From Gemmatimonadales bacterium (GTDB lineage Bacteria > Gemmatimonadota > Gemmatimonadetes > Gemmatimonadales > GWC2-71-9): a stretch of 64,000 bases of DNA. The translations under genes were made by a program, and so were the position numbers. Of the stretch, positions 5,087 through 53,806 are shown piece by piece. The stretch lies in NCBI GenBank assembly GCA_035575675.1, contig DATLXS010000182.1:880-64879 (forward strand), written 5' to 3'. The first letter of the stretch is position 1, and the number at the start of each line of letters is the position of its first letter. The notes under the pieces are model-generated. The model made no database searches. It was not told the DNA's origin and saw only the letters and a list, made by a program, of their open reading frames with translations.

Positions 5087-5854
5087 TTAGGTGAAGTCTG
5101 GAATTGCGGCGCGCGCGAACGTCACGCCCTCGACCCGCGTCGCGCCGGCCTGCTCGAGGGCACGCGCTGCCTCAGCGAGCGTCGCGCCGGTTGTAAAAAC
5201 ATCATCGACCAGGATTAATGCGAAACTCGAAATGTGGAATGCGAAATTGACGCTTCCAGGTCCATTTTGGATTTCGCATTTCGCATTTCGCACTTCAAAC
5301 GCCCCCGCCACGTTCGCCAGACGCGTGTCCGGTGTCAACGCCGTTTGCGTCGGCGTCTCCCGCGTGCGGACGAGCAGGTCGGGAAGCACGGGAATCCGCC
5401 ACTGTCGGGCCAGCGCGCGCGCCAGCATCGCACTCTGGTTGTAGCCGCGCGTGCGCAAGCGCTTTGTGGCGAGAGGAATCGGGATGAGCACCGACGCTCC
5501 GTCGGCCGGGGACTGCCGTTTCCCCATCGCGATTGCCAAGTCGTCGGCGATCCGCGGCAGGCCGCCGTACTTCAGGGCGTGGACGGCGGGCCGGGCGTAC
5601 GCATCGAGCCACACCGCGGATCGCACCGCTCTGAGCGCCTCCGGCCACGCAACGCACAGCCGGCAGGGGCCGAAGTGGGGCTCGGGCTGGCCACACCGCT
5701 CGCACCAGGGTGGCCGCACCGCGCGCCAGCGCTGCCGGCACAGCGGGCAGACGATCCTGGCGGCATCGCGGGCATTGAGCAGACCGTGACAAATGAGACA
5801 CTCTGCAGGAAGGAGAAGCTGTTCAACCGCGGAGCGCACGGACGACGGCAGCAC
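5087..5854 (-). CDS. ComF-family phosphoribosyltransferase-like protein carrying an in-frame repeat insertion
   Basis: 255 aa. N-terminal double zinc ribbon (CLICHG..CPLCRQ..CERCGQ..CRLC) and a C-terminal PRPP loop LILVDDVFTTGATL. The AT-rich repeat at 5217-5293 is read in frame as NAKCEIQNGPGSVNFAFHISSFA. Confidence 0.8.
   Translation of the reverse strand: MLPSSVRSAVEQLLLPAECLICHGLLNARDAARIVCPLCRQRWRAVRPPWCERCGQPEPHFGPCRLCVAWPEALRAVRSAVWLDAYARPAVHALKYGGLPRIADDLAIAMGKRQSPADGASVLIPIPLATKRLRTRGYNQSAMLARALARQWRIPVLPDLLVRTRETPTQTALTPDTRLANVAGAFEVRNAKCEIQNGPGSVNFAFHISSFALILVDDVFTTGATLAEAARALEQAGATRVEGVTFARAAIPDFT
5217..5293. repeat. Inverted pair of GCGAAAT-type heptamer arrays inside comF
   Basis: Left arm AATGCGAAACTCGAAATGTGGAATGCGAAAT (5217-5247), a 23-nt spacer, and right arm ATTTCGCATTTCGCATTTCGCAC (5271-5293). 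The arms are reverse complements at the unit level. The region is visibly AT-richer than its surroundings. Confidence 0.85.
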
Positions 5855-19506: not shown

Positions 19507-19950
19507 ATGCGAATCGCACACGCCGCCCTAATTCTCACGCTGGTGACGCTGACGGGCGGCGGCTGCTTTGGCGGCACGGGCTCCGGTCTCGTCGGCACAT
19601 CCGGTGGCGATGGCGGCACCGGCAACGGCGCCGCCGTACTGGACTTCTTCGTCCAGCCGAACACCGCGAACGTCGGTCAGGTGATCTCGCCGCCGGTCGA
19701 GGTCCTCGTCCGCGATTCTCTGGGCAGTATTGACAGCGCGTTCACGGCAAGCATCACGATGGGTCTCGCGTCGAACTCGACCGGCGCGGCACTGGGCGGC
19801 ACGACAACGGTACGACCCACCAATGGAATCGCGACCTTCAGCAATCTCTCCGTCAATGCAGCGGGCACGTACACGCTGCAAGCGAGCGCCGACGGTGCCA
19901 CCAGCGTGACGAGCGGCGCCTTCACGATTACGACCGCGACGGAGCCCTGA
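19507..19950 (+). CDS. Lipoprotein with an Ig-like (Big-type) domain
   Basis: [20 protein letters not shown] is a lipobox-like signal. It is followed by a Gly-rich linker and a beta-rich domain ([23 protein letters not shown]...[21 protein letters not shown]) typical of bacterial Ig-like repeats. Confidence 0.5.
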
Positions 19951-19970
19951 TCATTGGACATTCTACATTC

Positions 19971-21923
19971 TCACAGCCGATAGCCAGCCAACGTTCCACT
20001 GGTAGTCTGTAAGAAAAGCATCCCCGAAATGTCGTCGACCGCATAGACGGGCTCGCGTTGCTTCCCGAGGTCGACGCGCGAGCGCGGTTGCCCGCTGTCT
20101 TTGTCGATCTGCAGCAGCACGTTGCCGTTCCCATCGGGCGAGCGCGTGAGCACGAACACGGCGCTCGGCGTCGCGAGGGAGGCTTTGAACCGCTTCGACG
20201 CCAGCGCGCCCGCCTGTTGTGAATATCCGCTCAGCTGTGCTCCGCCCTGCGAGTACGCCGTCGCCAGCTGGCTGGTGATGCGTTTGGCGGTCGTGTCGGT
20301 CGCGGTGCGCGAGGCCTGCGCAAACGCGTCGCCGTAGGCGGACGCCGCGGCGCCGTACAGTCCGGCGCGGACCGAATTGATCCGGTACAGCGCCCGCAGC
20401 AGTCCGGGCAGCTGCGGCGCGGGATTGTAGACCTGTTGCTTGATCTGCCCGTCCCGGCTGACGATCACCATGTTTTGTGGTGACGTAAGCACGAGGCCCG
20501 CCGTGCGAACCTCGAGCGCGGTGGGATCCTCATCGCCTTGCAGCTTGATCTCTCCACCGAGCGCGTGATAGGCGCCGTCCTGGCGATTCACGGCGTAGAG
20601 ATGACGGTCCTTGTTCGCGTATACGTAGAGCGTGCTTCCTTCCGCGGCGTGGAGCAGCAGGGATGACTTGCCGCCTTCGATCGCGTCTTTGTATTTCGGT
20701 TCGCCGCTGGACAGGTCGATGACGTTCACTTCGCCGTTGGTCGAGGCATCCGGCCGCGAGACATACAACAGACCCGCGGGAACGAGCTCGGCATAGTCGA
20801 GCTGGCCTTTGATCTTCACGTCCTTCTGCAGTCGCAGGGTGGCGGTGGCGACGTTCAGGACATTGACGAACGTCTTCGAATCGGCGTCCACCGCGAGGAC
20901 GACCGCGTCACCGGTGACCATGGCGTCCTTCACGGTACCGCGCATGCGGAGCGGCTTCGCGGCGATCATCGTGCCGTCGTCATAGCGTGCGACGTTCAGG
21001 CCGGTCTGCACCACGCCGTTGATGATGCGGACGTTGCCGGTCGCTTGATCGGGTGGCGGACCGACGGGCAACATGATGATGCCGGCCGGATGCTGGACGA
21101 TGTCCCGAATCCAGCCGTCCACGTTCGCCGGCTTCGCCCAGAGCGCCTGTCCGTCGGCGAGCCGGTAGGCCATGAGCCGGTCGTCGTAGCTCACGTAAAT
21201 GCGGTCGTTCCTGGCGAGCGAGGGATAGAGCTTGACTTGATGGGGCACCGCGCCGGAGCGCGCCATCGGCAAGGTCGCCGTCCAGCGGATCGCGCCGGTT
21301 TTCGCATCGAGCGCGCGCAGGCCCATCAGCGTGTGGACCACGATCACCTCGGGCCCTGCCTGGAGCACTTCGAGCGTGGTCGCCGCCGAGGCCATGCGCA
21401 CCAGACCCTGCATGAGGCCGCCGAGGCCGCCGCGCTTCGGCTCGGTCTGTTGGAAGAGCGATTCACTCACCCAGCGCTGGGTGCCGGTCGCCAGATCGTA
21501 GAGCGCCACCACGGGCGGACCCGAAGCGCGTTGACCGTGCACGAGCAGCGTCCCCGTCTGAGGCAGCACACGACGCGTGACGACGCGCGTCAGATTCAAG
21601 CGCCGCGAGTCGAAGAGCACGGTGCCGGTCACCGGGTCGAAGATGAGCGACAGGCCGGGCTTCGCCGCCTCCATCAGGAGCGATCCCTCGACCATGCGCA
21701 CGCTGTCCACCGGCAGGCCGCCGAGCTCCGGTTTCTGCCAGGCGATCTGCCCGCGTTCCACGTCGACGCCCGAGAGCGCGGCATCGCTCGCGACCAGCAG
21801 TGCGCCGGCAGGCGTGATCTGCTCCCAGCGGAGGTCGCCGGGGAAATGCAGCGTCCAGGCGGCGACCGAGCCTACGGGGGCTTGAGCAGCCTGAAGAAGG
21901 ACGAGGAGCAGCGGCAGTGTCAT
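19971..21923 (-). CDS. Secreted PQQ-like beta-propeller repeat protein
   Basis: 650 aa. Signal peptide MTLPLLLVLLQAAQA and repeated ..G.V.ALD..TG...W.. blades (GVDVERGQIAWQ, LYDLATGTQRWV, ALDAKTGAIRWT, AYRLADGQALWA). Confidence 0.6.
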   Translation of the reverse strand: MTLPLLLVLLQAAQAPVGSVAAWTLHFPGDLRWEQITPAGALLVASDAALSGVDVERGQIAWQKPELGGLPVDSVRMVEGSLLMEAAKPGLSLIFDPVTGTVLFDSRRLNLTRVVTRRVLPQTGTLLVHGQRASGPPVVALYDLATGTQRWVSESLFQQTEPKRGGLGGLMQGLVRMASAATTLEVLQAGPEVIVVHTLMGLRALDAKTGAIRWTATLPMARSGAVPHQVKLYPSLARNDRIYVSYDDRLMAYRLADGQALWAKPANVDGWIRDIVQHPAGIIMLPVGPPPDQATGNVRIINGVVQTGLNVARYDDGTMIAAKPLRMRGTVKDAMVTGDAVVLAVDADSKTFVNVLNVATATLRLQKDVKIKGQLDYAELVPAGLLYVSRPDASTNGEVNVIDLSSGEPKYKDAIEGGKSSLLLHAAEGSTLYVYANKDRHLYAVNRQDGAYHALGGEIKLQGDEDPTALEVRTAGLVLTSPQNMVIVSRDGQIKQQVYNPAPQLPGLLRALYRINSVRAGLYGAAASAYGDAFAQASRTATDTTAKRITSQLATAYSQGGAQLSGYSQQAGALASKRFKASLATPSAVFVLTRSPDGNGNVLLQIDKDSGQPRSRVDLGKQREPVYAVDDISGMLFLQTTSGTLAGYRL

Positions 21924-35627: not shown

Positions 35628-37738
35628 ACCGGCGGAATGTGGGAATGATGGAACGATGGACTGGACTACTGCTTCTCCTTTCCATCATTCCATCATTCAT
35701 TCCATCATTCCATCTTTCCGCCCAGGAGCCCTTCCCCACCAAGGCACCGGCTCCCAGTCGCCTCCGGCCCGTGCAGTTCCCGCCGTTCCGGGATGTCGCA
35801 CTGCCGAACGGGATGACCCTGCTGCTGGTCGAGAATCACGAGCAGCCGACCCTCTCGGTGAGTCTCAGCTTCCGCGCGGGAACCGCGTACGATCCCGCCG
35901 GCAAAGAAGGGGTCGCGGCGCTGGTCGCGGAGCTGTTGACCAAGGGCACCCCCACGCGCACCGCCGACCAGATCGAGGCCGCGATCGAGGGTGTGGGCGG
36001 GAGCATCGGCGCGAGCACGGGCGACGACTTCCTGACGATCTCGACCGACGTGCTGAGCGATCACGCGGATCTGGCGTTCTCGCTGCTCGGCGATGTGACG
36101 CGACGGGCGACGTACCCCGAGCAGGAGCTGGAGCTCGCGCGCACGCGGTTCCTTTCGTCGCTCGAGGTGGAGCTGTCGCAGGCCGATAATGTCGCCGCGC
36201 GCGCGTTCCAGAAGGAGATTTACGGCCGCAATCCGTACGGCCGAACCACGAGCGTTGCCGCCTACAAGGCGATCACTCGGGACGACGTCGTGGGGTTCGC
36301 GGCGCGGCGGCTGCGTCCCGGTGGCGCGCTCCTCGTGATCTCAGGCGATATCACCCTGCCGCAAGCCCGCGCGTTCGCGACCGAGGCGTTCGGCACCTGG
36401 CGCGGCGCCGCGGCGCCGACGCCCGCATTTCCCGCGGTCCCCACCAAACGCGGCACGGACATCCTGCTCGTCAACCGGCCGGGCTCCGTGCAGTCGAATA
36501 TCGTGATCGGCAATACGACCTTCCTCCCGACCGACAGCGGCTACTACCCGGCGCGGATCGCGACGCACGTCTTGGGCGGTGGCAGTGATTCCCGCCTGTT
36601 CATGATCCTGCGCGAGCAGAAGAGCTGGACGTACGGCTCCTACGCCGCGCTGCGGCGCAGTCGCGGCATGGGATTCTGGCAAGCGACATTCGAGGGCCGC
36701 ACCGAGGTCACCGACAGCGCGCTGACGGAGCTGCTCCATCAGATCGACCGGATACGCACCGAGACCATTTCCGACAGTGAGCTCGTTGCGGCGAAGGGGT
36801 TCCTCGTCGGCTCCTTCCCGCTGACGATCGAGACGCCGCGCCAAATCGCGCAGGTCGTCACGTCGGCGCGGCTGCTCGGGCTCGGCGCGGACTACATCCA
36901 GCGCTATCGCGAACGCCTCACGGCGGTGAGTGCCCTGCGCGCGCGCGCCGCGGCGCAGCGCGTCTTCAAACGCGATGCGCTCACGATCGTGGTGGTCGGC
37001 GACGCCAAGGCGCTATACGACAAGCTCAAGGCGATCGCGCCCGTGCGACTCGTGGATGTCGGCGGCAAGTCGATGGATCCGGCCGACCTGAATCCGACGG
37101 GCGGGCCGGTGGCGTTCGATCGCAGTCAGATCGTGGCGCACAGCGACAGCTTCCAGGCACTGGTGCAAGGCAACGCACTGGGGGGTCAGACCTCGAAGGT
37201 TGTCGTCACCGGTGATTCGATCGTCTATACCGAATCGACCGTGATTGGTGCGTTCGTCCAGCAACAGTCGACGGCCGTGCTGAACAGCGACCTGTCGATG
37301 CGTCGGACCGATCAGACCAGCGTGGTTCAGGGCCAGCACACGGAGATCCATCTCGTTTACGCGGGCGGGCGAGTGAAGGGCACGAGCCAGACGCCGCAGC
37401 CCGGCGGTCCGAAGACGATCTCGGTCGACACGACGGTTACCGCGGGGACGATCGACGACAACGCGCTCGCGGTCCTGTTGCCCGCGCTGGCGCTCGAGCA
37501 AGGCAAAACCTTCAACCTGAACGTCTTCTCGTCCGGCGAAGGCGTGACCAAGGTCGTCAGCGTGAAGGTCGCCGGCGTCGAGAACGTCGCGGTGCCCGCG
37601 GGGACCATCCCGGCCTACCGGCTCGAGTTGTCCGGGATGCAGCTGCCGCTCGTGATGCATGTCAGCCAGCAGGCGCCGCGGCGGGTCGTGCGGGTTGCGC
37701 CGACGGGAGCGCCGCTGGTGTTTGAACTCGTGAAATAA
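35624..37738 (+). CDS. M16-family peptidase, non-catalytic partner with ~250-aa C-terminal extension
   Basis: 704 aa. M16 fold with no HxxEH motif. ATGA overlap with the upstream M16 gene. The first ~33 codons are encoded by the inverted repeat at 35631-35722. Confidence 0.8.
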   Translation: MNRRNVGMMERWTGLLLLLSIIPSFIPSFHLSAQEPFPTKAPAPSRLRPVQFPPFRDVALPNGMTLLLVENHEQPTLSVSLSFRAGTAYDPAGKEGVAALVAELLTKGTPTRTADQIEAAIEGVGGSIGASTGDDFLTISTDVLSDHADLAFSLLGDVTRRATYPEQELELARTRFLSSLEVELSQADNVAARAFQKEIYGRNPYGRTTSVAAYKAITRDDVVGFAARRLRPGGALLVISGDITLPQARAFATEAFGTWRGAAAPTPAFPAVPTKRGTDILLVNRPGSVQSNIVIGNTTFLPTDSGYYPARIATHVLGGGSDSRLFMILREQKSWTYGSYAALRRSRGMGFWQATFEGRTEVTDSALTELLHQIDRIRTETISDSELVAAKGFLVGSFPLTIETPRQIAQVVTSARLLGLGADYIQRYRERLTAVSALRARAAAQRVFKRDALTIVVVGDAKALYDKLKAIAPVRLVDVGGKSMDPADLNPTGGPVAFDRSQIVAHSDSFQALVQGNALGGQTSKVVVTGDSIVYTESTVIGAFVQQQSTAVLNSDLSMRRTDQTSVVQGQHTEIHLVYAGGRVKGTSQTPQPGGPKTISVDTTVTAGTIDDNALAVLLPALALEQGKTFNLNVFSSGEGVTKVVSVKVAGVENVAVPAGTIPAYRLELSGMQLPLVMHVSQQAPRRVVRVAPTGAPLVFELVK
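35631..35722. repeat. Inverted pair of GGAATGA-type arrays with GGCGGAA/TTCCGCC termini
   Basis: Left arm GGCGGAATGTGGGAATGATGGAACGATGGA (35631-35660), a 20-nt spacer, and right arm TCCATCATTCCATCATTCATTCCATCATTCCATCTTTCCGCC (35681-35722). Confidence 0.85.
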
Positions 37739-39158: not shown

Positions 39159-40363
39159 TCGCCTTCCTGCTTGCCCAGACGATCGCGATCACCGGGGGCA
39201 CGGTGTATCCGGTTTCGGGTCCGAAGATCGAAAACGCCACGGTGCTGATCCGTGATGGCCGGATTGCCGCCGTCGGAGCGACCGTGGCCGTGCCGGCAGG
39301 TGCGACGCGCATCGATGCATCCGGCAAGTGGGTAACACCCGGCTTCATCGATGGCGCGGGTCAGATGGGATTGCGGGAGATTGGCGCGGTCGACAATACG
39401 AGTGAGTACACCTTCCGGGGCAACGACGTCGCGGCTGCCTTCAACGTGCTCGAAGGCGTCAATCCGGCGTCCGCGCTCATCGCCGTGAACCGGATGGAAG
39501 GGATCACCACCACCCTCGCGGTGCCCAACGGCAATCTGATTTGGGGCCAGGCGGTGTTGATCGATCTCGATGGCGCGACGATCGAGGCGATGCGGGTGAA
39601 ATCACCCACCGCGATGGTCGCCGATTTGAGCGAAGGGTCCAAGGCCGCGGGCGGCGGCTCCCGCGCGGGCGTGGCGCAACGGCTGCGCCGCGTACTCGAT
39701 GACGCGCGCGAATACGCGACGCGGCGTGCCGATTATCGCCGCGCGCAGATCCAGCCGCTCAGCGCGAGCGCGGCGGACCTCGAGGCGCTGCAGCCGGTGC
39801 TGCGTGGTGAGCTGCCGCTGCTCGTGGTTGCGAACCGCCGCAGCGATATCGAGACCGCGCTGCGCATCGCCAAGGAGTACAAGCTGCGGCTGATTCTCGC
39901 GGGGGTCGCCGAGGGGTGGATGATCGCGAGCGAGATCGCGGCGGTGGGGGTGCCGGTGCTGGTCGAGCCGCTCGACAACATTCCGAGCTACGACGCGCTC
40001 GGCATCCGCTACGAGAACGCGCCGTTGCTCGCGAAGGGCGGCGTGAAGGTCGCGCTGATGGAGACGGCGACCGAGAATACCAGAGACCTGCGGCAGCAGG
40101 CAGGCAACGCCGTTGCGAACGGGATGCCGTGGGAGCAGGCGTTGCGGGCCGTGACGCTCACACCCGCCGAGATCTTTGGCGTGGCGGATCGGTACGGATC
40201 ACTGGACGCGGGGAAAGTTGCGAACGTCGTCGTCTGGACCGGTGATCCCTTCGATTTCTCGACGGGGGTCGAGCACGTATTCATACGGGGCAAAGACATT
40301 CGGTTGCGGAGCAGACAGACGGAGTTGCTGGAGAGGTATAAGACGCTGCCGCCGAAGTACTAG
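39155..40363 (+). CDS. Amidohydrolase-family paralog lacking the HxH metal motif
   Basis: 402 aa. Same fold (TPGFIDGAGQMG where HxH is expected; ..GKVANVVVWTGDP). ATGA overlap with the upstream paralog. No signal peptide from the only available start. Confidence 0.7.
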   Translation: MIAFLLAQTIAITGGTVYPVSGPKIENATVLIRDGRIAAVGATVAVPAGATRIDASGKWVTPGFIDGAGQMGLREIGAVDNTSEYTFRGNDVAAAFNVLEGVNPASALIAVNRMEGITTTLAVPNGNLIWGQAVLIDLDGATIEAMRVKSPTAMVADLSEGSKAAGGGSRAGVAQRLRRVLDDAREYATRRADYRRAQIQPLSASAADLEALQPVLRGELPLLVVANRRSDIETALRIAKEYKLRLILAGVAEGWMIASEIAAVGVPVLVEPLDNIPSYDALGIRYENAPLLAKGGVKVALMETATENTRDLRQQAGNAVANGMPWEQALRAVTLTPAEIFGVADRYGSLDAGKVANVVVWTGDPFDFSTGVEHVFIRGKDIRLRSRQTELLERYKTLPPKY

Positions 40364-40776
40364 GCGGTAACAGGCGGGATTGGGCGGTAACGGGCGGTAG
40401 GTGGCGAACCCACCTGCCGCTTGTTTTTGTCGATTGCGGCATACAATCGCCACACCAACGTCCCTGCATGATTCCGCAGGCGTTCAATCGTTTGCCACGC
40501 CTCGTCTGACATCAACTCCAGGTCCTTGGCGAGTCTCAACGCGACAGATAACTCAGACAATGAACCGAGAGCGATGTCGAGGTAACGCCTGAACTCGGCG
40601 GATCCCCGTTTCGCCGATCCTTCTGCGATGTTGGCGACGACAGAGAAAGCCGCACGTCGGGACTGCGAAGTTAGTCCGTAGAGCTCATGCTTTGGGAAAG
40701 TCGCGGTAATCCGATAAACATCCAGAGTCAGTTCGTAAGAAAGCTTCCATGCTTGAAAGCGCTCATAGGGGAGCAT
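40360..40776 (-). CDS. Four-helix-bundle protein (23S rRNA intervening-sequence protein / Avd-like family)
   Basis: 138 aa. FQAWKLSYELTLDVY..FPKHELYGLTSQSRRAAFSVVANIAEGSAKRGSAEFRRYLDIALGSLSEL matches the TIGR02436/PF05635 pattern. The C-terminal tail (..GSPPTARYRPIPPVTA) is read from array A. Visibly lower G+C than its neighbours. Confidence 0.85.
   Translation of the reverse strand: MLPYERFQAWKLSYELTLDVYRITATFPKHELYGLTSQSRRAAFSVVANIAEGSAKRGSAEFRRYLDIALGSLSELSVALRLAKDLELMSDEAWQTIERLRNHAGTLVWRLYAAIDKNKRQVGSPPTARYRPIPPVTA
40363..40429 (+). repeat. GGCGGTAnnn 10-bp iteron array ending in a terminator hairpin (array A)
   Basis: GGCGGTAACA GGCGGGATTG GGCGGTAACG GGCGGTAGGT starts on the last base of the TAG stop. 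The last unit forms stem GCGGTAGGTGG-CGAAC-CCACCTGCCGC followed by TTGTTTTTG. Confidence 0.9.
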
Positions 40777-40844
40777 CAGTGGATCGTAGCGTTCAGTCTG
40801 ACAAGCGGGTTACTCAATCGAACGCATGTGGGCACAAGAAAATT

Positions 40845-40878
40845 CCGCCTGTTGCCGCCTTTTGCCGCCCATTACCGT
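40845..40878 (-). repeat. 10-bp iteron array B (C-rich on + strand)
   Basis: CCGCCTGTTG CCGCCTTTTG CCGCCCATTA CCGTC. On the minus strand it reads TGA-GACGGTAATG GGCGGCAAAA GGCGGCAACA GGCGG, starting directly after the stop of the 40880-41680 gene. Confidence 0.85.
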
Positions 40879-40879
40879 C

Positions 40880-41680
40880 TCAGCGTCTCGACCAGACGAG
40901 TATCGCTCCGCAAGGACTCAAATAACCTGAGTACTGGACGGGTACACCCTCGGGTCCGGGATATACTTCCAGCGCTTCGATATTGAATGGGTTGACGAGG
41001 TCATCGAGGCTGAGTCCACCGCTAGCCGTGCCGCCGGGCTGCAGCAAGACACCGTCGAAAACGACGCTGGGGTTACATTTTCCGCGAAAGAACATCGTGT
41101 TCGCGGCTCGCATGGTGACTGTACATTGCAAGCCGGGACCGCCTTGTGAAGGGCCCCGCTGCTGTCCCCCGCAAGTGACGCGCACTCCAGACATCCCATG
41201 AAGTAGGTCAGTAAGGTGGAGGGGATCCCGCTTGTCGATTTCGTCGCGGGTGAGGAAATGTCCAAACCCCTCCTGTCTGCGTCTGTAAAACCCGGCGTCC
41301 GCCAAGTATGGCAACCGTCTCTCGATTTCCTTCGCTACGACCGTAACGGTGTCGAGAGTTATCGGGTTCGAAGGCAAGCTCAGCGATACGCGTGCCGTGA
41401 AGGCTGAACTGAAAAGAAAGGGTTTGCTTAGACTGATCGGATAACCGATCCTACTGATTAGCAGGCGATACTCACCGAGGCGCGGAATGCTGAAGGTGAA
41501 CTGACCGTCCGAGCTTGTGACTAGAGACTTCATCGCCGTGCCCGCGCTATCGAGGAGAAGGATGCGTGCACCGACGATGGGTTTTCCGGACACACTGTCC
41601 AGCACCGTCCCGGCGAGGACCTGTGCTTCAGCGGGATGCGCGAGCAATCCGAGTGTCAGCACGCAAACGGAGAGTCGCAT
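40880..41680 (-). CDS. CarboxypepD_reg-like + TonB-plug-like domain protein (no barrel)
   Basis: 266 aa. Signal peptide MRLSVCVLTLGLLAHPAEAQ, LAGTVLDSVSGKPIVGARILLLD..SDGQFTF..GEYRLLISRIGY, then plug-like LTDLLHGMSGVRV..VVFDGVLL..NIEALEVYPGP. Lower G+C than its surroundings. Confidence 0.6.
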   Translation of the reverse strand: MRLSVCVLTLGLLAHPAEAQVLAGTVLDSVSGKPIVGARILLLDSAGTAMKSLVTSSDGQFTFSIPRLGEYRLLISRIGYPISLSKPFLFSSAFTARVSLSLPSNPITLDTVTVVAKEIERRLPYLADAGFYRRRQEGFGHFLTRDEIDKRDPLHLTDLLHGMSGVRVTCGGQQRGPSQGGPGLQCTVTMRAANTMFFRGKCNPSVVFDGVLLQPGGTASGGLSLDDLVNPFNIEALEVYPGPEGVPVQYSGYLSPCGAILVWSRR

Positions 41681-41698
41681 CTCGTTTAGTGTACCAAT

Positions 41699-41764
41699 GA
41701 AAAAGCGGCAGGGTCCGCAAACCCCTACCGCCCATTACCGCCTTGTACCGCCTGTTACCGCCTA
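41699..41764 (-). repeat. 10-bp iteron array C plus terminator hairpin downstream of rpmA
   Basis: The minus strand reads TAG-GCGGTAACAG GCGGTACAAG GCGGTAATGG GCGGTAGGG-GTTTGCGGA-CCCTGCCGC-TTTTT. The first 17 nt are identical to array A (TAGGCGGTAACAGGCGG) on the opposite strand. Confidence 0.9.
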
Positions 41765-42040
41765 GTTGTTCGCCGCCGCTTTCACTGCAGCCGGATACAC
41801 ACTCACCTGAAACCGCTGCTTGTTCTTGTGCTCGAACTTCACGTGACCGTCGATGGTCGTGAACAGCGTATCGTTCGCACCGCGGCGCACGTTCTTGCCG
41901 GGATGGAACTTGGTGCCGCGCTGAATGACGATGATGGTCCCGGCCCGCACGAATTCCCCGCCGAACCGCTTCACGCCGAGGTACTTCGGATTCGAGTCGC
42001 GCCCGTTGCGCGAGGAGCCGACGCCCTTCTTATGAGCCAT
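41762..42040 (-). CDS. rpmA: 50S ribosomal protein L27
   Basis: 92 aa. [39 protein letters not shown]. Confidence 0.97.
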
Positions 42041-45443: not shown

Positions 45444-45487
45444 GACGGTAAGGGACGGTAAAGAAGCGACGGTAAAGGACGGTAAGG
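45444..45487. repeat. GACGGTAAnG iteron array, single arm
   Basis: GACGGTAAGG GACGGTAAAGAAGC GACGGTAAAG GACGGTAAGG fills the recQ-stop to acyl-CoA-dehydrogenase-start spacer. C-rich in the sense of both flanking genes. Confidence 0.85.
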
Positions 45488-45488
45488 G

Positions 45489-48837: not shown

Positions 48838-49581
48838 ATGCCCAAGGTGCACTGTTCGCTGTGTAACGCTCCCGTGGAGGGCCGCACGCTCGCGTCCCCG
48901 CAGAAGTTGGAAAACCGCATCATCGACCTGATAAAAAAAGACCGGCCGGAATGGGAAGGGACGCGTGGCATCTGCGCCAACTGCCTCGAGACCTATCGCG
49001 CCAAGAAGTTCGTGACCTATCTCGAAGCCGAGTATCAGAAGCTGTCGGAGCTCGAGCACTCAGTGGTCTCGAAGATCACGCGCCGCGGGCGGGTCAGTAA
49101 GCTCGTGCATCAGGACATGGAGACGTCGATGACGTTCGGCGAGCACGTGGCCGACAAGGTGGCGCAGTTTGGGGGAAGCTGGCGCTTCATCGGGCTCTTT
49201 GGAGGCATCCTGCTCGTGTGGATGGTGGTGAACGCCTGGGTGCTCGCGACCCATCCCTTCGACCCCTACCCCTTCATTCTCTTGAACCTCGTGCTGTCGA
49301 CGCTCGCGGCGCTCCAGGCGCCGGTGATCATGATGAGCCAGAACCGCCAGGCGCACAAAGACCGGATGCAGGCGAATCAGGATTACGAGATCAACTTGAT
49401 GGCGGAGATTGAAATCCGGGATCTACACGACAAGCTGGATTCGCTGCGATTCAAGCAATGGCACGAGCTGTGGCACATTCAAAAGCGGCAAATCGAACTG
49501 CTCGAGCATCTCTGCGCGAAGGGTGCGGATCCCGAGCTTAAGGCTCCCGCGCCGAGTCCCTATGTGCCCCCTGAACTCTGA
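48838..49581 (+). CDS. DUF1003-family membrane protein with N-terminal zinc ribbon
   Basis: 247 aa. AGGAGA RBS at 48825-48830. CSLC..CANC ribbon, then FGGSWRFIGLF..PYPFILLNLVLS..APVIMMSQNRQ..D (DUF1003 core). Confidence 0.75.
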   Translation: MPKVHCSLCNAPVEGRTLASPQKLENRIIDLIKKDRPEWEGTRGICANCLETYRAKKFVTYLEAEYQKLSELEHSVVSKITRRGRVSKLVHQDMETSMTFGEHVADKVAQFGGSWRFIGLFGGILLVWMVVNAWVLATHPFDPYPFILLNLVLSTLAALQAPVIMMSQNRQAHKDRMQANQDYEINLMAEIEIRDLHDKLDSLRFKQWHELWHIQKRQIELLEHLCAKGADPELKAPAPSPYVPPEL

Positions 49582-49652
49582 CGGTAGGCAAGGCGACGGT
49601 AGATGAAACGACGGTAGGTAAGGCGACGGTAGATAAAACGACGGTAGATACC
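49579..49652 (+). repeat. GACGGTAG 15-bp iteron array (left arm)
   Basis: T-GACGGTAGGCAAGGC GACGGTAGATGAAAC GACGGTAGGTAAGGC GACGGTAGATAAAAC GACGGTAGATACC. It begins inside the TGA stop of the DUF1003 gene and shows an alternating 30-bp higher-order repeat. Confidence 0.9.
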
Positions 49653-49692
49653 ATTTTGAGTTGTGGTTGATCGCCTCCCGAGATACTCCCTC

Positions 49693-50061
49693 ATGCTCGC
49701 GCATGAGAGAATCCACGCTTGGAAGTTGTGTCACGAGCTGGTGCTGGCTGTATACGATGCAACGACATCGTTTCCTAAACATGAACTCTACGGGTTGACC
49801 TCCCAAGCTCGGCGCGCCGCTTTTTCTGCGGCGGTCAACATTGTCGAAGGCTCCGCCAAGCGTGGCCCCGCCGAATTTCGACGATTCCCGGATATGAGTG
49901 TTGGTTCGCTTGCGGAGCTCGCCTACACGTTGCGTGTGGCGAAGGACCTGGGGTTCATTGATGACGAGCGCTGGCGGTCATTAGAACAACGTCGAAGACA
50001 AGCAGGCATGATGACGTGGAGACTCTACTCGGCGGTTGCGAGAGCGGCGAGAAGAGTGTGA
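49693..50061 (+). CDS. Four-helix-bundle protein (23S rRNA intervening-sequence protein / Avd-like family), paralog 2
   Basis: 122 aa from ATG 49693 (MLAHERIHAWKLCHELVLAVY..FPKHELYGLTSQARRAAFSAAVNIVEGSAKRGPAEFRRF). Aligns end to end with the 40360-40776 protein at roughly 60% identity by eye. Confidence 0.85.
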   Translation: MLAHERIHAWKLCHELVLAVYDATTSFPKHELYGLTSQARRAAFSAAVNIVEGSAKRGPAEFRRFPDMSVGSLAELAYTLRVAKDLGFIDDERWRSLEQRRRQAGMMTWRLYSAVARAARRV

Positions 50062-50063
50062 CA

Positions 50064-50132
50064 CTTACCGTCGCCTTATCTACCGTCCTTTACCGTCGTA
50101 TTATCTACCGTCGTATTATCTACGGTCGTCTC
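50064..50132 (-). repeat. CTACCGTC iteron array (right arm, inverted)
   Basis: CTTACCGTC GCCTTATCTACCGTC CTTTACCGTC GTATTATCTACCGTC GTATTATCTACGGTC. The array ends 1 nt before the TCA (minus-strand TGA stop, 50133-50135) of the 50133-50450 gene. Confidence 0.9.
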
Positions 50133-50450
50133 TCACCCCGCATCTTTCCAGTCAATCGCATAGCTGCGCCCACATTCGTGGCACTTGGCGTCCTTGCGAT
50201 TCTCGGGGACGACGGTCCGCGCGTGACATCCGGGGCACACCAGGTGTGGCTGGCGCACCACACTCCAGGCGCTGGGTCGCTCGCTCCGAATCTCGAGATC
50301 CGCTTTTGGGATCCGGATCTCCACGTGGTGCACATCCAGCACCACGAAGTCCTTGGGCGGATTTTCGACGACGCGATACCAGGCGCCGCGCCGGAGTCCC
50401 TGTCCTTCCGCACGATCACCGCGACTACGAGCCCAACCGATGTCAGCCAT
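50133..50450 (-). CDS. Hypothetical protein with C-terminal zinc ribbon
   Basis: 105 aa from MADIGW (ATG 50450, 8-nt overlap with the upstream GroES-like gene). C-terminal CPGC..(13)..CHEC. Confidence 0.45.
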   Translation of the reverse strand: MADIGWARSRGDRAEGQGLRRGAWYRVVENPPKDFVVLDVHHVEIRIPKADLEIRSERPSAWSVVRQPHLVCPGCHARTVVPENRKDAKCHECGRSYAIDWKDAG

Positions 50451-50944: not shown

Positions 50945-52168
50945 ATGCAAGAGGTAACGAACGCCGGGCAGACCCAACAGTGGAGCTTCGTGCTTCAGCA
51001 ACTGGTGCAGTGGGTTGTCGCGGGGTTTACGTGGATCGTCCCCATCCAGGCGCGCATCCTCGATTTCGTGCTGCGGGGTGAGTCCTTCTGGAGTCTCGCC
51101 GCGACGTCGGTGCTGCTGTTCCTGCCGGCGATGGCGGTCATCGGCGGATTGTGGCTGACGATGGCCGCGGTGTACACGATCCCGTTCCGGCTCGGTCGGT
51201 CGGTGACGCTCCTGCAGTCGGTCGCGCTGGCGTGGTGGGACGTGCTGCGCATGTCGTGGTTCTACTGGGCGGGCCTGGTGCGCTTCCTGATCGTCCTCAT
51301 CGGCTGGGTCTGGGGCCTGATCCAGTTGAGCGGGAGGCTCATCGTCGGCACGGTGAAGGGCGCGATCACGTCGCCGCTTGCCGTCCTGGACGCGACGTCG
51401 CGCCGTCCGGGCGTGCCGTGGCCCGCATTCTTCATGTTGGTGTTCTGGTCGATGATCGAGGCCACAATTTTCACCTTCACGCTGAAGCCGACGGCGAGTG
51501 AGTTGCTCGGCGAGCTCACCGGCTACGAGGTCAACGGGTTCGCGTTCATGATGTTGCTCTGGCTGTTCCTGTGGGTTCTGGTCGCGGGCAGCTTCGCGTG
51601 CATTCAAGTCTTGAACGAGGCCATCAAGAGCAAAAAGTACGGGCAGATTGTCTCGATGGTGGCCATCGAAATCGCCGTGGCGATGTTCGAGGTGCTGTTC
51701 CTGTATCGCGAGCTGGTCGACGCCATGACGCCGTGGCTCGCGCAGCAGGGCGTTCAGCTCACAGCCATTGAGACGATCGGACTCGCGTTCTTTGCCTGGG
51801 TCGGCGTGCGCGGCATGACGTGGTTCCTGTTCGGCCGCTTCGGCGCGCCGGCGATGATCGCGCTCCTCGGCCGCCAGGGGTTGGTCGTCGAGGGTGGAGC
51901 CGGCCACGGGCCCGCGCCGCAGATGGCCGACTACTGGAAGGGGCCGATCGCGGCCCTCAAAGCGGAACGCGAATGGTTTCGCAAGGAGGCGCGGGAGGTG
52001 TTCGAGCTGGCGTCGCTCCCGGTTCTGCAGGTGGTTGCCGCGGGGCTGAACTTCCTGTTCGTCGTCTTCACGGGCCGCGGCCACTTTACGTTGCCGTTCA
52101 AGTCGATCGACGAGGTGCTCGCGGCCACGCATTTCCCCGCTCGCGTGAGCGGCGAGGTGGCGCGATGA
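50945..52168 (+). CDS. Polytopic inner-membrane protein, unknown family
   Basis: 407 aa with about 8-9 hydrophobic, Trp/Phe-rich segments (e.g. FWSLAATSVLLFLPAMAVIGGLWL, WFYWAGLVRFLIVLIGWVWGLI, GFAFMMLLWLFLWVLVAGSF). I recognise no motif. Confidence 0.6.
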   Translation: MQEVTNAGQTQQWSFVLQQLVQWVVAGFTWIVPIQARILDFVLRGESFWSLAATSVLLFLPAMAVIGGLWLTMAAVYTIPFRLGRSVTLLQSVALAWWDVLRMSWFYWAGLVRFLIVLIGWVWGLIQLSGRLIVGTVKGAITSPLAVLDATSRRPGVPWPAFFMLVFWSMIEATIFTFTLKPTASELLGELTGYEVNGFAFMMLLWLFLWVLVAGSFACIQVLNEAIKSKKYGQIVSMVAIEIAVAMFEVLFLYRELVDAMTPWLAQQGVQLTAIETIGLAFFAWVGVRGMTWFLFGRFGAPAMIALLGRQGLVVEGGAGHGPAPQMADYWKGPIAALKAEREWFRKEAREVFELASLPVLQVVAAGLNFLFVVFTGRGHFTLPFKSIDEVLAATHFPARVSGEVAR

Positions 52169-52914
52169 AGCGCGTGGTCCTGGCGCTCAGCCTCCTGGCG
52201 GTCGCGTGCGCGCCGAAAGCTGGTGGGCCGCCGCCGCGGTCGACGCTGGTGGTGGGACTCGATGTCTCGGGCTCGTTCCGCAACAGCGGGCGCTTCGACG
52301 ACGCGATGCGCTACGCCGCGTTGTACATCTACGGGCACGTCAACGGCCTCGGCGGTCTCAAGCAGGCGACCGACGTCTTTGTCGGATCGCTCGGCGGCGA
52401 CGTCGTGGGCCAGCCCAAGACATTCCACCCGATTCAGGACTTGGGCGGCAAGACGCCGGCGGAGATCGAGCGCGACCTGCGCGCCTGGTTCCCTGACGTC
52501 GATGCCCTCACCGACTTCAACGCCTTTTTCCAGCGCGTGGCGGTGCACATCAAGCGCCAGAACCTGGTGCTGGCACCGCTCAATATCGTGATGTTCTCGG
52601 ACGGCCTGCCCGATCTTCCGGGCGCGCGCCGCATGCAGCCCAAAGAGCTCTATGGGAAGGTTGATCTGAGTCCGATCGAGTACCTGTCGCGCAACGTGAC
52701 GGTCCGGCTCCTGTACGCCGACCCACCGATCGCGCAGAACTGGGAAAGGCTCGTCCCCCGCAATCGCGTGAAGATCTGGACGCAGGACGCCCAGGTCATG
52801 GATGGGTGGCACCGTCACGAGGTGGCGGGTGTCCCGATGGAGCGGCAGGACTCGCTCTGGAGTTGGACGGAGCAGATTGTCGACTTCCGCGTCCGCCGCG
52901 GCAAAATTCTCTAA
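52165..52914 (+). CDS. vWA-like (MIDAS-motif) lipoprotein
   Basis: 249 aa. ATGA overlap with the membrane protein gene. Lipobox LLAVAC. LVVGLDVSGSF (DxSxS) and IVMFSDGLPD are characteristic of von Willebrand A domains. Confidence 0.6.
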   Translation: MKRVVLALSLLAVACAPKAGGPPPRSTLVVGLDVSGSFRNSGRFDDAMRYAALYIYGHVNGLGGLKQATDVFVGSLGGDVVGQPKTFHPIQDLGGKTPAEIERDLRAWFPDVDALTDFNAFFQRVAVHIKRQNLVLAPLNIVMFSDGLPDLPGARRMQPKELYGKVDLSPIEYLSRNVTVRLLYADPPIAQNWERLVPRNRVKIWTQDAQVMDGWHRHEVAGVPMERQDSLWSWTEQIVDFRVRRGKIL

Positions 52915-52918
52915 AAAC

Positions 52919-53013
52919 GACGGTAAGGGACGGTAGGTGAAACGACGGTAAGGGACGGTAAACCCTTACCGTCGTTTACCGTCGTAGTACCTACCGTCGC
53001 ATTACCTACCGTC
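52919..53013. repeat. Back-to-back inverted GACGGTA arrays with no cargo ('empty' hairpin)
   Basis: GACGGTAAGG GACGGTAGGTGAAAC GACGGTAAGG GACGGTAAAC | CCTTACCGTC GTTTACCGTC GTAGTACCTACCGTC GCATTACCTACCGTC. It sits between convergent genes, and the TAG stop of the methyltransferase (53006-53008) lies inside the array. Confidence 0.9.
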
Positions 53014-53806
53014 GATTCTCCAGGCTCACCGTCCGTATCCACTCGGCGGGATCCGTCGGCGCGTGAGGTACCAGCCCCCGCCACACCTTGTAGCGCAGCT
53101 TCCGCAAGCCGGTCAGCGCACGCCCATCCGCAAACGGAATCAGTCGCCGCACTCGTCGCGCCAGGGCCAGCCGCGCGGCGCGCCACCGCGCGCCGTCGCC
53201 CGGCCGATATTGCGCCCACCCGATCGAGCCGCAGAGACCCGCAGGACCGAATTGGTCTGAGGCGAGCAGCTCCTCGGCAAACACGCGCACCGGCCCCTCA
53301 AAGCTGTGCAGTACGTCATGCATCGCGACGATCGCACCCGGCGCCAGGTGCGGCCGAAAGAGGTCGATATCCTCCTTCGCGCCGCGGTACGTGTGGTCGC
53401 CGTCGATCCACAGGAACCGGATCGACCGAGTCCACCCCTGCGCGAGGTCACGGGAATAGGCGCGATGCGCCTCGACAGTTCGCTCGACGCCTGCGTCGCG
53501 CAGCGACGCCTGGAAGTCATCCCACGACGATTGCTGCGAGCCATGTCCAAAGTCTGTGACGGCGGGGGCGGAGTGCGGATCGACGCTTACGACGGGGCCG
53601 AGGCCATAGTGCTGCGCGATGGAGGCCAGCCCAACGGTGGACTTTCCCTTGTAGCTCCCGATCTCGAGGATCGTCCCGCGGGCGGGGGCGCACGCCGCCG
53701 CGAGCGCCAGGAACCGCGCTTCGCGCTCCGTTAAAAACCCCGGAGCGGCCCGGACGCGTGTCCAGGCCTCCTCAACGGCTTGTCCAAGATCAGACGGCGT
53801 GGTCAG
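53006..53806 (-). CDS. Class I SAM-dependent methyltransferase (Methyltransf_24-like)
   Basis: GTILEIGSYKGKSTVGLA (motif I), VVSVDPH and LWIDGDHTY. Homology begins near FLTEREARFL. There is no ATG/GTG/TTG in frame between 54079 and the domain. CTG at 53806 would make a CTGA overlap with the bacilliredoxin stop. Confidence 0.65.
   Translation of the reverse strand: MTTPSDLGQAVEEAWTRVRAAPGFLTEREARFLALAAACAPARGTILEIGSYKGKSTVGLASIAQHYGLGPVVSVDPHSAPAVTDFGHGSQQSSWDDFQASLRDAGVERTVEAHRAYSRDLAQGWTRSIRFLWIDGDHTYRGAKEDIDLFRPHLAPGAIVAMHDVLHSFEGPVRVFAEELLASDQFGPAGLCGSIGWAQYRPGDGARWRAARLALARRVRRLIPFADGRALTGLRKLRYKVWRGLVPHAPTDPAEWIRTVSLENRR

Follow-up and report, generated by a model that had tools for sequence, protein, structure and literature searches.

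A hairpin of inverted heptamer arrays between convergent genes is acquired DNA and probably an IVS-like cassette without its four-helix-bundle ORF

Introduction

In a 64,000-nucleotide stretch of DNA from a Gemmatimonadales bacterium (GenBank contig DATLXS010000182.1, positions 880 to 64,879; here called the window), two short arrays of inverted heptamers lie head to head between two convergent genes. The locus raises the question of what a gene-less pair of such arrays is, and whether it is an ancestral feature of its site or a later arrival. The question touches on the intervening sequences (IVS) of rRNA, which carry an ORF (S23p) in Coxiella and Leptospira and are short and ORF-less in Salmonella, Campylobacter, and Yersinia. 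The Coxiella IVS combines its S23p ORF with a terminal stem of 28 bp, a substrate of RNase III, and bears GACAGAT heptamers in tandem at its 5' end, two or three depending on the strain (PMC4990558). What the "23S rRNA intervening sequence protein" family does, and how rRNA IVS arose, have been open questions since the 1990s (PMC4990558). Here, we describe the hairpin as acquired DNA and as a probable IVS-like cassette outside rRNA that lacks the four-helix-bundle ORF.

Results

Eight heptamers fold into a single hairpin

The element spans 101 nt (52914–53014) and has no counterpart in syntenic relatives. Its 5' arm (52919–52960, + strand) is composed of four GACGGTA units starting at 52919, 52929, 52944, and 52954, with start-to-start spacings of 10, 15, and 10 nt. 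The 3' arm (52967–53013, + strand) contains four TACCGTC units, i.e., GACGGTA on the − strand, at 52967, 52977, 52992, and 53007, spaced by 10, 15, and 15 nt. Between the arms, AACCCT (52961–52966) forms the loop in the minimum free energy structures. The arrangement of four G-rich units facing four C-rich units given in an earlier note on this DNA is confirmed, as is the order U1 U2 rc(U1) rc(U2) of the central units (GACGGTAAGG GACGGTAAAC CCTTACCGTC GTTTACCGTC). GACGGTA occurs 25 times in the window against 3.98 ± 2.13 expected copies, a count reached by none of 100 shuffles.

Folding of the element as RNA yields −65.1 kcal/mol for the + strand and −67.1 kcal/mol for the − strand (z = −7.8 and −7.5, respectively), and none of 200 shuffled sequences is equally stable. 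Like rRNA IVS, the element has a long stem formed from terminal inverted repeats; such repeats are also a feature of MITEs. Boltzmann sampling of 1000 structures per strand places all eight units in one hairpin of ~44 bp in 98–100% of cases; a register nested throughout, in which unit 1 pairs with unit 4' and unit 2 with unit 3', accounts for 97.7% (+) and 99.9% (−) of the structures. The complementarity for two mutually exclusive 10-bp stems, from which the earlier note had predicted a slipped or alternative hairpin, is present, but such stems are negligible in the ensemble. The sampling rejects the alternative hairpin as a meaningful state, and the order of the central units gives rise to small bulges only.

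Metagenome contig L121, which is independent of the window, has an identical array at this site, and L126 and L213–L218 have diverged ones, which excludes an assembly artefact. At Rfam gathering thresholds, no family is detected at the element, and the only hit in the whole window is a single tRNA; no rRNA is present in the window, where the element sits between two protein-coding genes. A consensus terminator scan, which recognizes only short stems closely trailed by a T-rich tail, does not list the element because it lacks this combination.

The element fills a site where two genes overlap in relatives

On the left, the element is bordered by a gene for a 250-aa protein of unassigned family with a lipoprotein-like N-terminus (52162–52914, +), a neighbor kept in all relatives. 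This gene ends with ...GKIL*, and its TAA (52912–52914) abuts the first array unit. The convergent gene on the right encodes a Methyltransf_24 protein (53006–53773, −; Pfam E 7.5e-25; start approximate, ORF open to 54079), whose stop codon, CTA on the + strand (53006–53008), is located within the last array unit. As noted earlier from the sequence, the final 8 nt of the methyltransferase gene, including the TAG, lie in the array and the protein terminates with ...SLENRR*; the position between convergent genes likewise holds, and the array occupies their entire intergenic gap.

Orthologous loci were retrieved via methyltransferase homologues. The array is absent from L122–L125 and L128–L132, in all of which the methyltransferase and 250-aa genes overlap by 4 nt; these loci encode methyltransferases 81–85% identical to that of the window and are fully syntenic with it. 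The common gene order comprises AtuA, AtuA-ferredoxin, enoyl-CoA hydratase, a disulfide-isomerase-like protein, and the methyltransferase, followed by the convergent 250-aa gene, a gene of about 406 aa, Cpn10, Zn-ribbon, DUF1003, peptidase S9, and DEAD helicase genes; the exceptions are the lack of DUF1003 in L130 and the presence of an acyl-CoA dehydrogenase in L130 and L131.

Five syntenic Gemmatimonadales relatives (L122 and L128–L131) served as empty-site comparators. In these genomes, the methyltransferase and 250-aa genes overlap by 4 nt in GCTAGAGAAT, present as a single copy, and the junction reads GTCAGC TAGAGAAT TTTGCC or a close variant, with both stops inside the palindrome CTAG. 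The corresponding junction of the window, read on the methyltransferase strand, is AGC C TGGAGAAT [CGACGG ... CCGTCGTTTT] TAGAGAAT TTTGCC. Hence, an 8-bp target found once in the relatives is found twice in the window, on both sides of the 101-nt insert and with 7/8 positions matching. Copy 1 (ATTCTCTA, the reverse complement of TAGAGAAT; 52906–52913, +) comprises the last codons of the 250-aa gene and the first two bases of its TAA. Copy 2 (ATTCTCCA, the reverse complement of TGGAGAAT; 53015–53022, +; 7/8 match) contains the former TAG of the methyltransferase, now TGG and, in a shifted frame, part of the codons L-E-N; on the methyltransferase side it is preceded by an extra C. This C and the one substitution are the deviations from a clean duplication.

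The junctions indicate that the 101-nt element inserted at GCTAGAGAAT, where the convergent genes overlapped at their stop codons (CTAG), and that about 8 bp of target were duplicated upon insertion. The suggestion that the array is an ancestral bidirectional terminator invaded by four-helix-bundle genes fails at this locus, because the syntenic relatives have no hairpin and their two genes overlap by 4 nt. By this comparison, the hairpin at this site is evidently derived and not ancestral.

The array encodes the end of the methyltransferase

Most orthologues among 120 methyltransferase homologues end with ...AAWVRAVS*. Ten of the 120, and less clearly P0073, end a few residues further on, in array-derived sequence read in frame (...LE(N/K/E/S)RR*, ...MEKRR*, ...VDKGR*, ...MDAGR*, or ...VRDGR*); in the array carriers checked, the array-encoded end falls ~4–5 residues after the ...VS* end. 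An array was present at this site in every case looked up, namely five with extended ends (P0001, P0041, P0057, P0067, and P0069) and P0082. Comparison of the C-terminus with orthologues, a check proposed earlier, therefore reveals an altered end, and all extended ends looked up coincide with an array.

Relative to the common ...VS* end, the methyltransferase of the window is longer by LENRR. The change of TAG to TGG, together with the extra C, extends its ORF by these five codons (L E N R R), and the new TAG is supplied by the first repeat unit on the methyltransferase strand. Annotators of these genomes should note that repeats encode the short C-terminal extensions of the type ...RR* or ...GR*.

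Related elements within the window

An occupied sister element at 49.6 kb (49580–50129, +) consists of 5 + 5 GACGGTA-type units, in arms at 49580–49650 and 50065–50129, around a PF05635 four-helix-bundle gene (49693–50061). The cassette is absent from L122, L128, and L131. Its site in the relatives, GCTAGAGCTC, shares the hexamer CTAGAG with the methyltransferase site; it lies between the DUF1003 and Zn-ribbon genes and reads GGGC TAGAG CTCCGG, again a CTAG overlap of convergent stops. In the window, TGAGAG ... AGAG flanks the 550-nt cassette at this position.

A solo half-element of four GACGGTA units (45444–45488, +) separates the DEAD helicase gene from that for acyl-CoA dehydrogenase. It is absent from L130 and L131, the gap in relatives being 12–43 nt there, and is 87% complementary over 31 nt to an arm of the 49.6 kb cassette. 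A second cassette family, with the unit GGCGGTA, is found between the amidohydrolase and L27 genes (40362–41764). It has three arrays (40362–40406, 40845–40879, and 41726–41764) and two genes, one encoding a PF05635 protein (40360–40776, −) and the other a CarboxypepD_reg/Plug protein (40880–41680, −), which together extend the gap between L27 and amidohydrolase from 16 nt in L130 to 1.4 kb in the window. Its outer ends read CTAG GCGGTAAC ... GTTACCGC CTAG. Since the relatives have no arrays at these positions, four sites within 13 kb have gained array DNA in the lineage of the window. In-frame hairpin arrays are also observed elsewhere in the window, in comF and an M16 peptidase gene.

The four-helix-bundle genes enclosed at 49.6 and 40.4 kb belong to PF05635/TIGR02436 (E 4e-27 and 2e-30, respectively) and show a weak match to Avd. 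The closest solved structure is 2gsc, a single entry with five chains of the same sequence. As in rRNA IVS, what lies between the arms is either nothing, as in the element, or a PF05635 ORF, as in the 49.6 and 40.4 kb copies.

Over 54 nt, the 3' arm of the element and that of the 49.6 kb cassette (50081–50134) have 85% identity and the same 10/15/15 spacing. The former is also 88% complementary over 42 nt to the cassette's 5' arm, a closer match than the 86% between the two arms of the cassette itself. The shared heptamer, the common spacing, and the similarity of 85–88% over 42–54 nt support the description as an empty cassette for the GACGGTA family. The earlier note had regarded the element as the cargo-less state of both the 40.4 and 49.6 kb elements; this stands for the latter, while the different unit of the 40.4 kb cassette (GGCGGTA) makes the link to it a weaker one. 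The element is thus probably an ORF-less member of a hairpin family whose full forms enclose a PF05635 gene (S23p/23S-rRNA-IVS, Avd-like) in arms made of heptamer arrays.

At the three sites with empty-site comparators, the length of the target duplication differs: about 8 bp at the methyltransferase, 4–5 bp at 49.6 kb, and possibly CTAG at 40.4 kb. A classical transposase with a fixed stagger is therefore not indicated. Of 32 arm ends, 6 have a CTAG no more than 14 nt away, against an expectation of 0.3.

Empty copies predominate and one allele has spread

When genomes were scanned for GACGGTA in three spaced units, at least 120 loci were recovered, so that many dispersed copies, as known for MITEs, exist. 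The matches listed fall in many Gemmatimonadota MAGs, several of which have two or three array loci each, and include pure 7-nt arrays in other phyla; the window's own genome is not among them. Counting empty and occupied inverted pairs, as had been suggested, we find about 22 empty +/− GACGGTA pairs (interiors of 9–206 nt) and one occupied pair (L013) among the matches listed, which are a biased sample. A profile search of interiors of 30–206 nt detected no four-helix-bundle remnants (E > 1 except for the intact L013 gene), which leaves descent of the empty pairs by internal deletion unproven.

The methyltransferase site is known in six sequence variants, with 2 + 2, 4 + 4, 5 + 4, or 8 + 4 units. 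The earlier note had called for relatives in which this exact site is occupied; all six variants are empty. Since insertion, the element has thus ranged from two to eight units per arm around a near-constant core. Very unequal arms (8 + 4 in L214 and 10 + 4 in L151) weaken the case for selection maintaining a symmetric stem.

In a neighbor-joining tree built on the core of the methyltransferase, proteins from loci with the array do not group together but are interspersed with those from loci lacking it. Sliding-window identity profiles show that L213, which has the array, and L128, which does not, are 95–100% identical over most of the gene and the downstream gene, except for one internal mosaic block (65–73%) and roughly 100 nt on either side of the array. 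Conversely, L126 and L217, which also have the array, agree with L213 at only 71–85% in the body of the gene but at 90–95% adjoining the array. The junctions are the same in all array copies at this site. Together with the imported tract in the profiles, these identical junctions point to a single insertion, and the array-bearing allele has moved between Gemmatimonadales lineages by homologous recombination. Recurrent independent insertion, considered as a source of the patchy distribution in the tree, is rejected in view of the same two observations.

Inverted arrays flank PF05635 genes in general

A metagenome scan with the two four-helix-bundle proteins of the window (49.6 and 40.4 kb) retrieved 80 loci, and the upstream flank of each was aligned to the reverse complement of its downstream flank. 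In 70 of the 73 loci with enough flanking sequence, inverted arms are present whose scores (median 51) exceed those of all shuffles, which reach 25 at most. These loci represent 17 independent genomic sites, 15 of which have arms. The unit families are GACGGTA, GGCGGTA, GGCGGTC, GGCGGAG, GGCGGCG, and GGCGGCA, and more distant members have units of the CAGCCGT-, CAGTTTT-, AGAATTC-, CTGGTAA-, and GCACTT-types.

Twenty-six loci correspond to the DUF1003/Zn-ribbon site of the window and 20 to its L27/amidohydrolase site, which identifies the cassettes as old, vertically inherited residents. The four-helix-bundle genes have dN/dS values of 0.03–0.14, indicating purifying selection. Within an orthologous cassette site, the arms comprise 3–10 units that recur every 10 or 15 nt, and the two arms often differ; the heptamer core is nearly invariant, with occasional single-base variants, and the number of units drifts. 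In one case (L140), the cassette is reversed in orientation at the orthologous site.

Of five PF05635 loci examined on plasmids, four likewise have inverted heptamer-like arrays: those of Nostoc punctiforme, Calothrix, Azospirillum, and Picosynechococcus, the last lying between cas10 and cmr3. At the remaining locus, in Nostoc PCC 7120, a CTCTGCC array is present on the downstream side only. These flanking sequences support inverted arrays as a general architecture of PF05635 genes outside rRNA. The literature searched contains no description of such cassettes outside rRNA, and heptamers are mentioned only in the Coxiella IVS paper (PMC4990558).

Two candidate regularities were discarded. Strict co-evolution of protein and heptamer is confounded by orthology and contradicted by L013, and outward stop codons in all frames hold for GACGGTA(A/G) units but not for GGCGGTC-type units.

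Discussion

Origin of the element

Several explanations can be weighed against an ORF-less IVS-like cassette. One is that local duplication gave rise to a bidirectional intrinsic terminator in situ, with no tie to mobile DNA; this would fit an element that fills the gap between convergent genes, has a very stable stem, and carries a U5 tail on the methyltransferase strand. However, there is no spacer whatever at this site in the relatives, the same arrays recur with extended similarity at other window sites and in many other genomes, and the flanking duplication and recombination tract indicate acquired DNA. The empty sites of the relatives contradict such an origin, and we regard this explanation as very improbable. 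An ordinary MITE of some transposase, in which the heptamers are multiple transposase-binding sites per end and the four-helix-bundle gene is a mere passenger, has precedents in the repeated transposase-binding sites in the ends of Tn7, Mu, and IS21. It would account for the terminal inverted arms, the direct target duplication, and the apparent CTAGAG/CTAG preference, for the many dispersed empty copies and solo ends, and for the other cargo within arms, such as the Plug-domain gene at 40880–41680. This origin is nevertheless unlikely: no transposase gene was seen beside any of the 80 cassettes, the window loci, or the arrays examined; the duplication length is not constant; unit spacings of 7, 10, 14, or 15 nt do not keep helical phase; and the association with PF05635 is near-universal across phyla. 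Moreover, even genomes with protein identities of only 72–99% keep the cassettes at orthologous sites, so that mobility must be rare.

It is possible, if doubtful, that the arrays are instead putative binding sites, as RNA or single-stranded DNA, of a pentameric four-helix-bundle protein. The pair would then form a selfish or regulatory module, a true analog of REPIN/RAYT, with the empty hairpin as a trans target or decoy of the 49.6 kb protein. The almost invariant heptamer core amid drifting spacers and unit numbers agrees with this, as do the purifying selection on the proteins, the five same-sequence chains in 2gsc, and the binding of RNA by Avd relatives together with reverse transcriptase in diversity-generating retroelements (DGRs). 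Units also track the protein family, GACGGTA being of the 49.6 kb type, GGCGGTA of the 40.4 kb type, and other clades having others, but this correlation largely reflects orthology (same site, vertical inheritance), and the L013 protein, only 27–32% identical, lies between pure GACGGTA arrays. Units per arm range from 2 to 10, with no fixed five. That a pentameric protein might bind the heptamers is an idea drawn solely from core conservation and family-specific units.

A proposed role in RNA

As an ORF-less, IVS-like cassette, the element would act at the RNA level, as rRNA IVS do. Transcripts of both convergent genes would enter the element and form a stem of roughly 44 bp, which may terminate the transcript or serve in its processing. 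With UUUUU after it on the methyltransferase strand (−), the stem resembles an intrinsic terminator; the + strand continues with AUUCUCC, a poor U-tract. Both strands would be plausible RNase III substrates. By analogy with rRNA IVS, a terminator or RNase III function of the element may therefore be envisaged. In occupied elements, the stem would free the mRNA of the promoterless four-helix-bundle gene from read-through transcripts, a proposal that would explain why cassettes lie flush against host stop codons. Cassette positions that fit release from read-through transcripts include those flush with host stops, inside operons, and inside rRNA.

Comparison with known systems

Among documented systems, the element comes closest to rRNA IVS, which it resembles in the long stem formed from terminal inverted repeats, with a PF05635 gene or nothing in the loop. 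It differs in its location, since rRNA IVS are found in helix 25 or 45 of 23S rRNA and the element lies between protein-coding genes. In addition, the arms of its family consist wholly of 4–10 repeat units, and an empty site and target duplication can be demonstrated here.

The earlier note had drawn a parallel to REPIN doublets and RAYT-containing loci. It holds as an analogy of anatomy: short inverted pairs at gene 3' ends far outnumber gene-enclosing copies (empty to occupied roughly 20:1 among the matches listed), and the gene-carrying copies are bordered by the same repeats. The enclosed protein sets the two systems apart, a Y1 (IS200/IS605-like) transposase in RAYT loci and a PF05635/TIGR02436 four-helix bundle here, for which we know of no transposase activity. 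The arms also differ, being tandem arrays here and single palindromes there.

RNase III-processed MITEs, such as the Correia elements of Neisseria, and in-frame palindromic elements, such as the RPEs of Rickettsia, are likewise small inverted-repeat inserts that are co-transcribed with their neighbors, alter gene ends, and form RNA hairpins. The element differs from them in having neither a TA target nor a cognate transposase family, and in its arms of conserved-heptamer arrays. Cyanobacterial short tandemly repeated repetitive (STRR) sequences are also tandem heptamers in intergenic DNA, and such arrays flank PF05635 genes on plasmids of Nostoc, Calothrix, and Picosynechococcus. STRRs are, however, described as tandem repeats, and a link to four-helix-bundle genes is not stated in the literature searched; it is an observation of this analysis, made at five plasmid loci only.

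More tentatively, PF05635 genes and inverted arrays of short units might constitute one widespread, unrecognized class of cassettes in Gemmatimonadota, Cyanobacteria, Alphaproteobacteria, and other phyla, which would target host gene ends and depend on read-through transcription. We offer this as a speculative generalization, in which rRNA IVS and at least part of the STRRs would be special cases, a pentameric protein would recognize the heptamers of its own arms, and gene-less hairpins would be non-autonomous copies.

Significance

Unlike the rRNA cases, the locus allows an occupied site to be compared directly with an empty one, and it also displays a target duplication, a rewritten gene end, and the spread of an allele by recombination. 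Hairpin-plus-heptamer architecture is a general property of PF05635 genes outside rRNA, copies with no gene prevail among the matches listed, and the wider association of PF05635 genes with inverted heptamer arrays deserves follow-up. It is now testable whether the Avd-like protein binds the arrays, and whether the stems may serve as RNase III sites or terminators for a promoterless gene.

Organization and orientation of the four-helix-bundle cassettes

The element adjoining the L27 and amidohydrolase genes is composite (40360-41775), with a PF05635 gene, a CarboxypepD_reg/Plug-domain gene and an array between them. Its outermost arms are 85% complementary across 52 nt. The PF05635 ORF continues through its own 3′ arm, ending ...VGSPPTARYRPIPPVTA*, and terminates in a CTAG common to the amidohydrolase stop. 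At the same site, next to L27, five metagenomic loci (L160, L161, L165, L169, and L172) carry only the four-helix-bundle gene.

At the DUF1003/Zn-ribbon site of another locus (L140, 88-662), the cassette is reversed relative to the flanking genes, as expected if the gene flips through recombination between the inverted arms.

Intergenic arrays and recombination in the methyltransferase gene

Four GACGGTA units form a solo array (45444-45488) that occupies the 57-nt gap separating the DEAD helicase gene from the acyl-CoA dehydrogenase gene, both on the same strand. In relatives this spacer measures 12-43 nt and is of unrelated sequence; the spacer of the syntenic relative L131 contains a CTGCGCAA tandem. 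The syntenic relative L130 carries a further array hairpin, built on a different, CAGCCGT-like unit, between its RNase E/G and L21 genes (19931-19988); the corresponding interval in the window is only 34 nt long.

A second mosaic block is observed within the methyltransferase gene itself, at alignment columns of about 120-180, where the array-bearing (L213) and array-less (L128) loci are 65-73% identical, against 95-100% elsewhere. Recombination is therefore frequent in the population, irrespective of the array.

In-frame inverted arrays

Inverted arrays are also found within ORFs of the window. An inverted pair with the unit CGAAATG/CATTTCG, which differs from GACGGTA, is located at 5216-5300, in frame inside a comF-like ORF (5087..5854, minus strand). 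The segment translates to ...RNAKCEIQNGPGSVNFAFHISSFA..., immediately ahead of the PRTase motif LILVDDVFTTG. Comparison of 120 Gemmatimonadales orthologues revealed that this segment is highly variable in length and sequence, and several of its variants look like other palindromic arrays. In addition, an inverted pair of arrays with 8-nt units, GGAATGAT/ATCATTCC (35631-35722), coincides with the point where the M16 peptidase ORF begins, and would encode the signal-peptide-like N-terminus of this ORF (MNRRNVGMMERWTGLLLLLSIIPSFIPSFHLSAQ).

Arrays in other genomes and in a CRISPR operon

Among the matches listed from the genome scan are long pure tandems of the 7-nt unit GACGGTA, the longest with 22 units. 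They come from unrelated phyla, with Shewanella, Saprospiraceae, Chloroflexota, and Acidobacteriota among those represented (loci L005, L029, L047, L112, L114, L119, and others). Another locus (L063, 3257-3374) contains a GACGGTA pair with an interior of 119 nt; on visual inspection, the reverse strand of this interior may code for a short hydrophobic peptide, downstream of a GGAGG motif.

A four-helix-bundle gene with inverted arrays of the GGAGATA type is present on a plasmid of Picosynechococcus sp. PCC 7003 (L221; NZ_CP016476.1, 126543-126899). The gene lies within a type III-B operon, in the 36-nt-flanked gap that separates cas10/cmr2 from cmr3. Part of the reported CRISPR associations of the four-helix-bundle family could be insertions of this kind.
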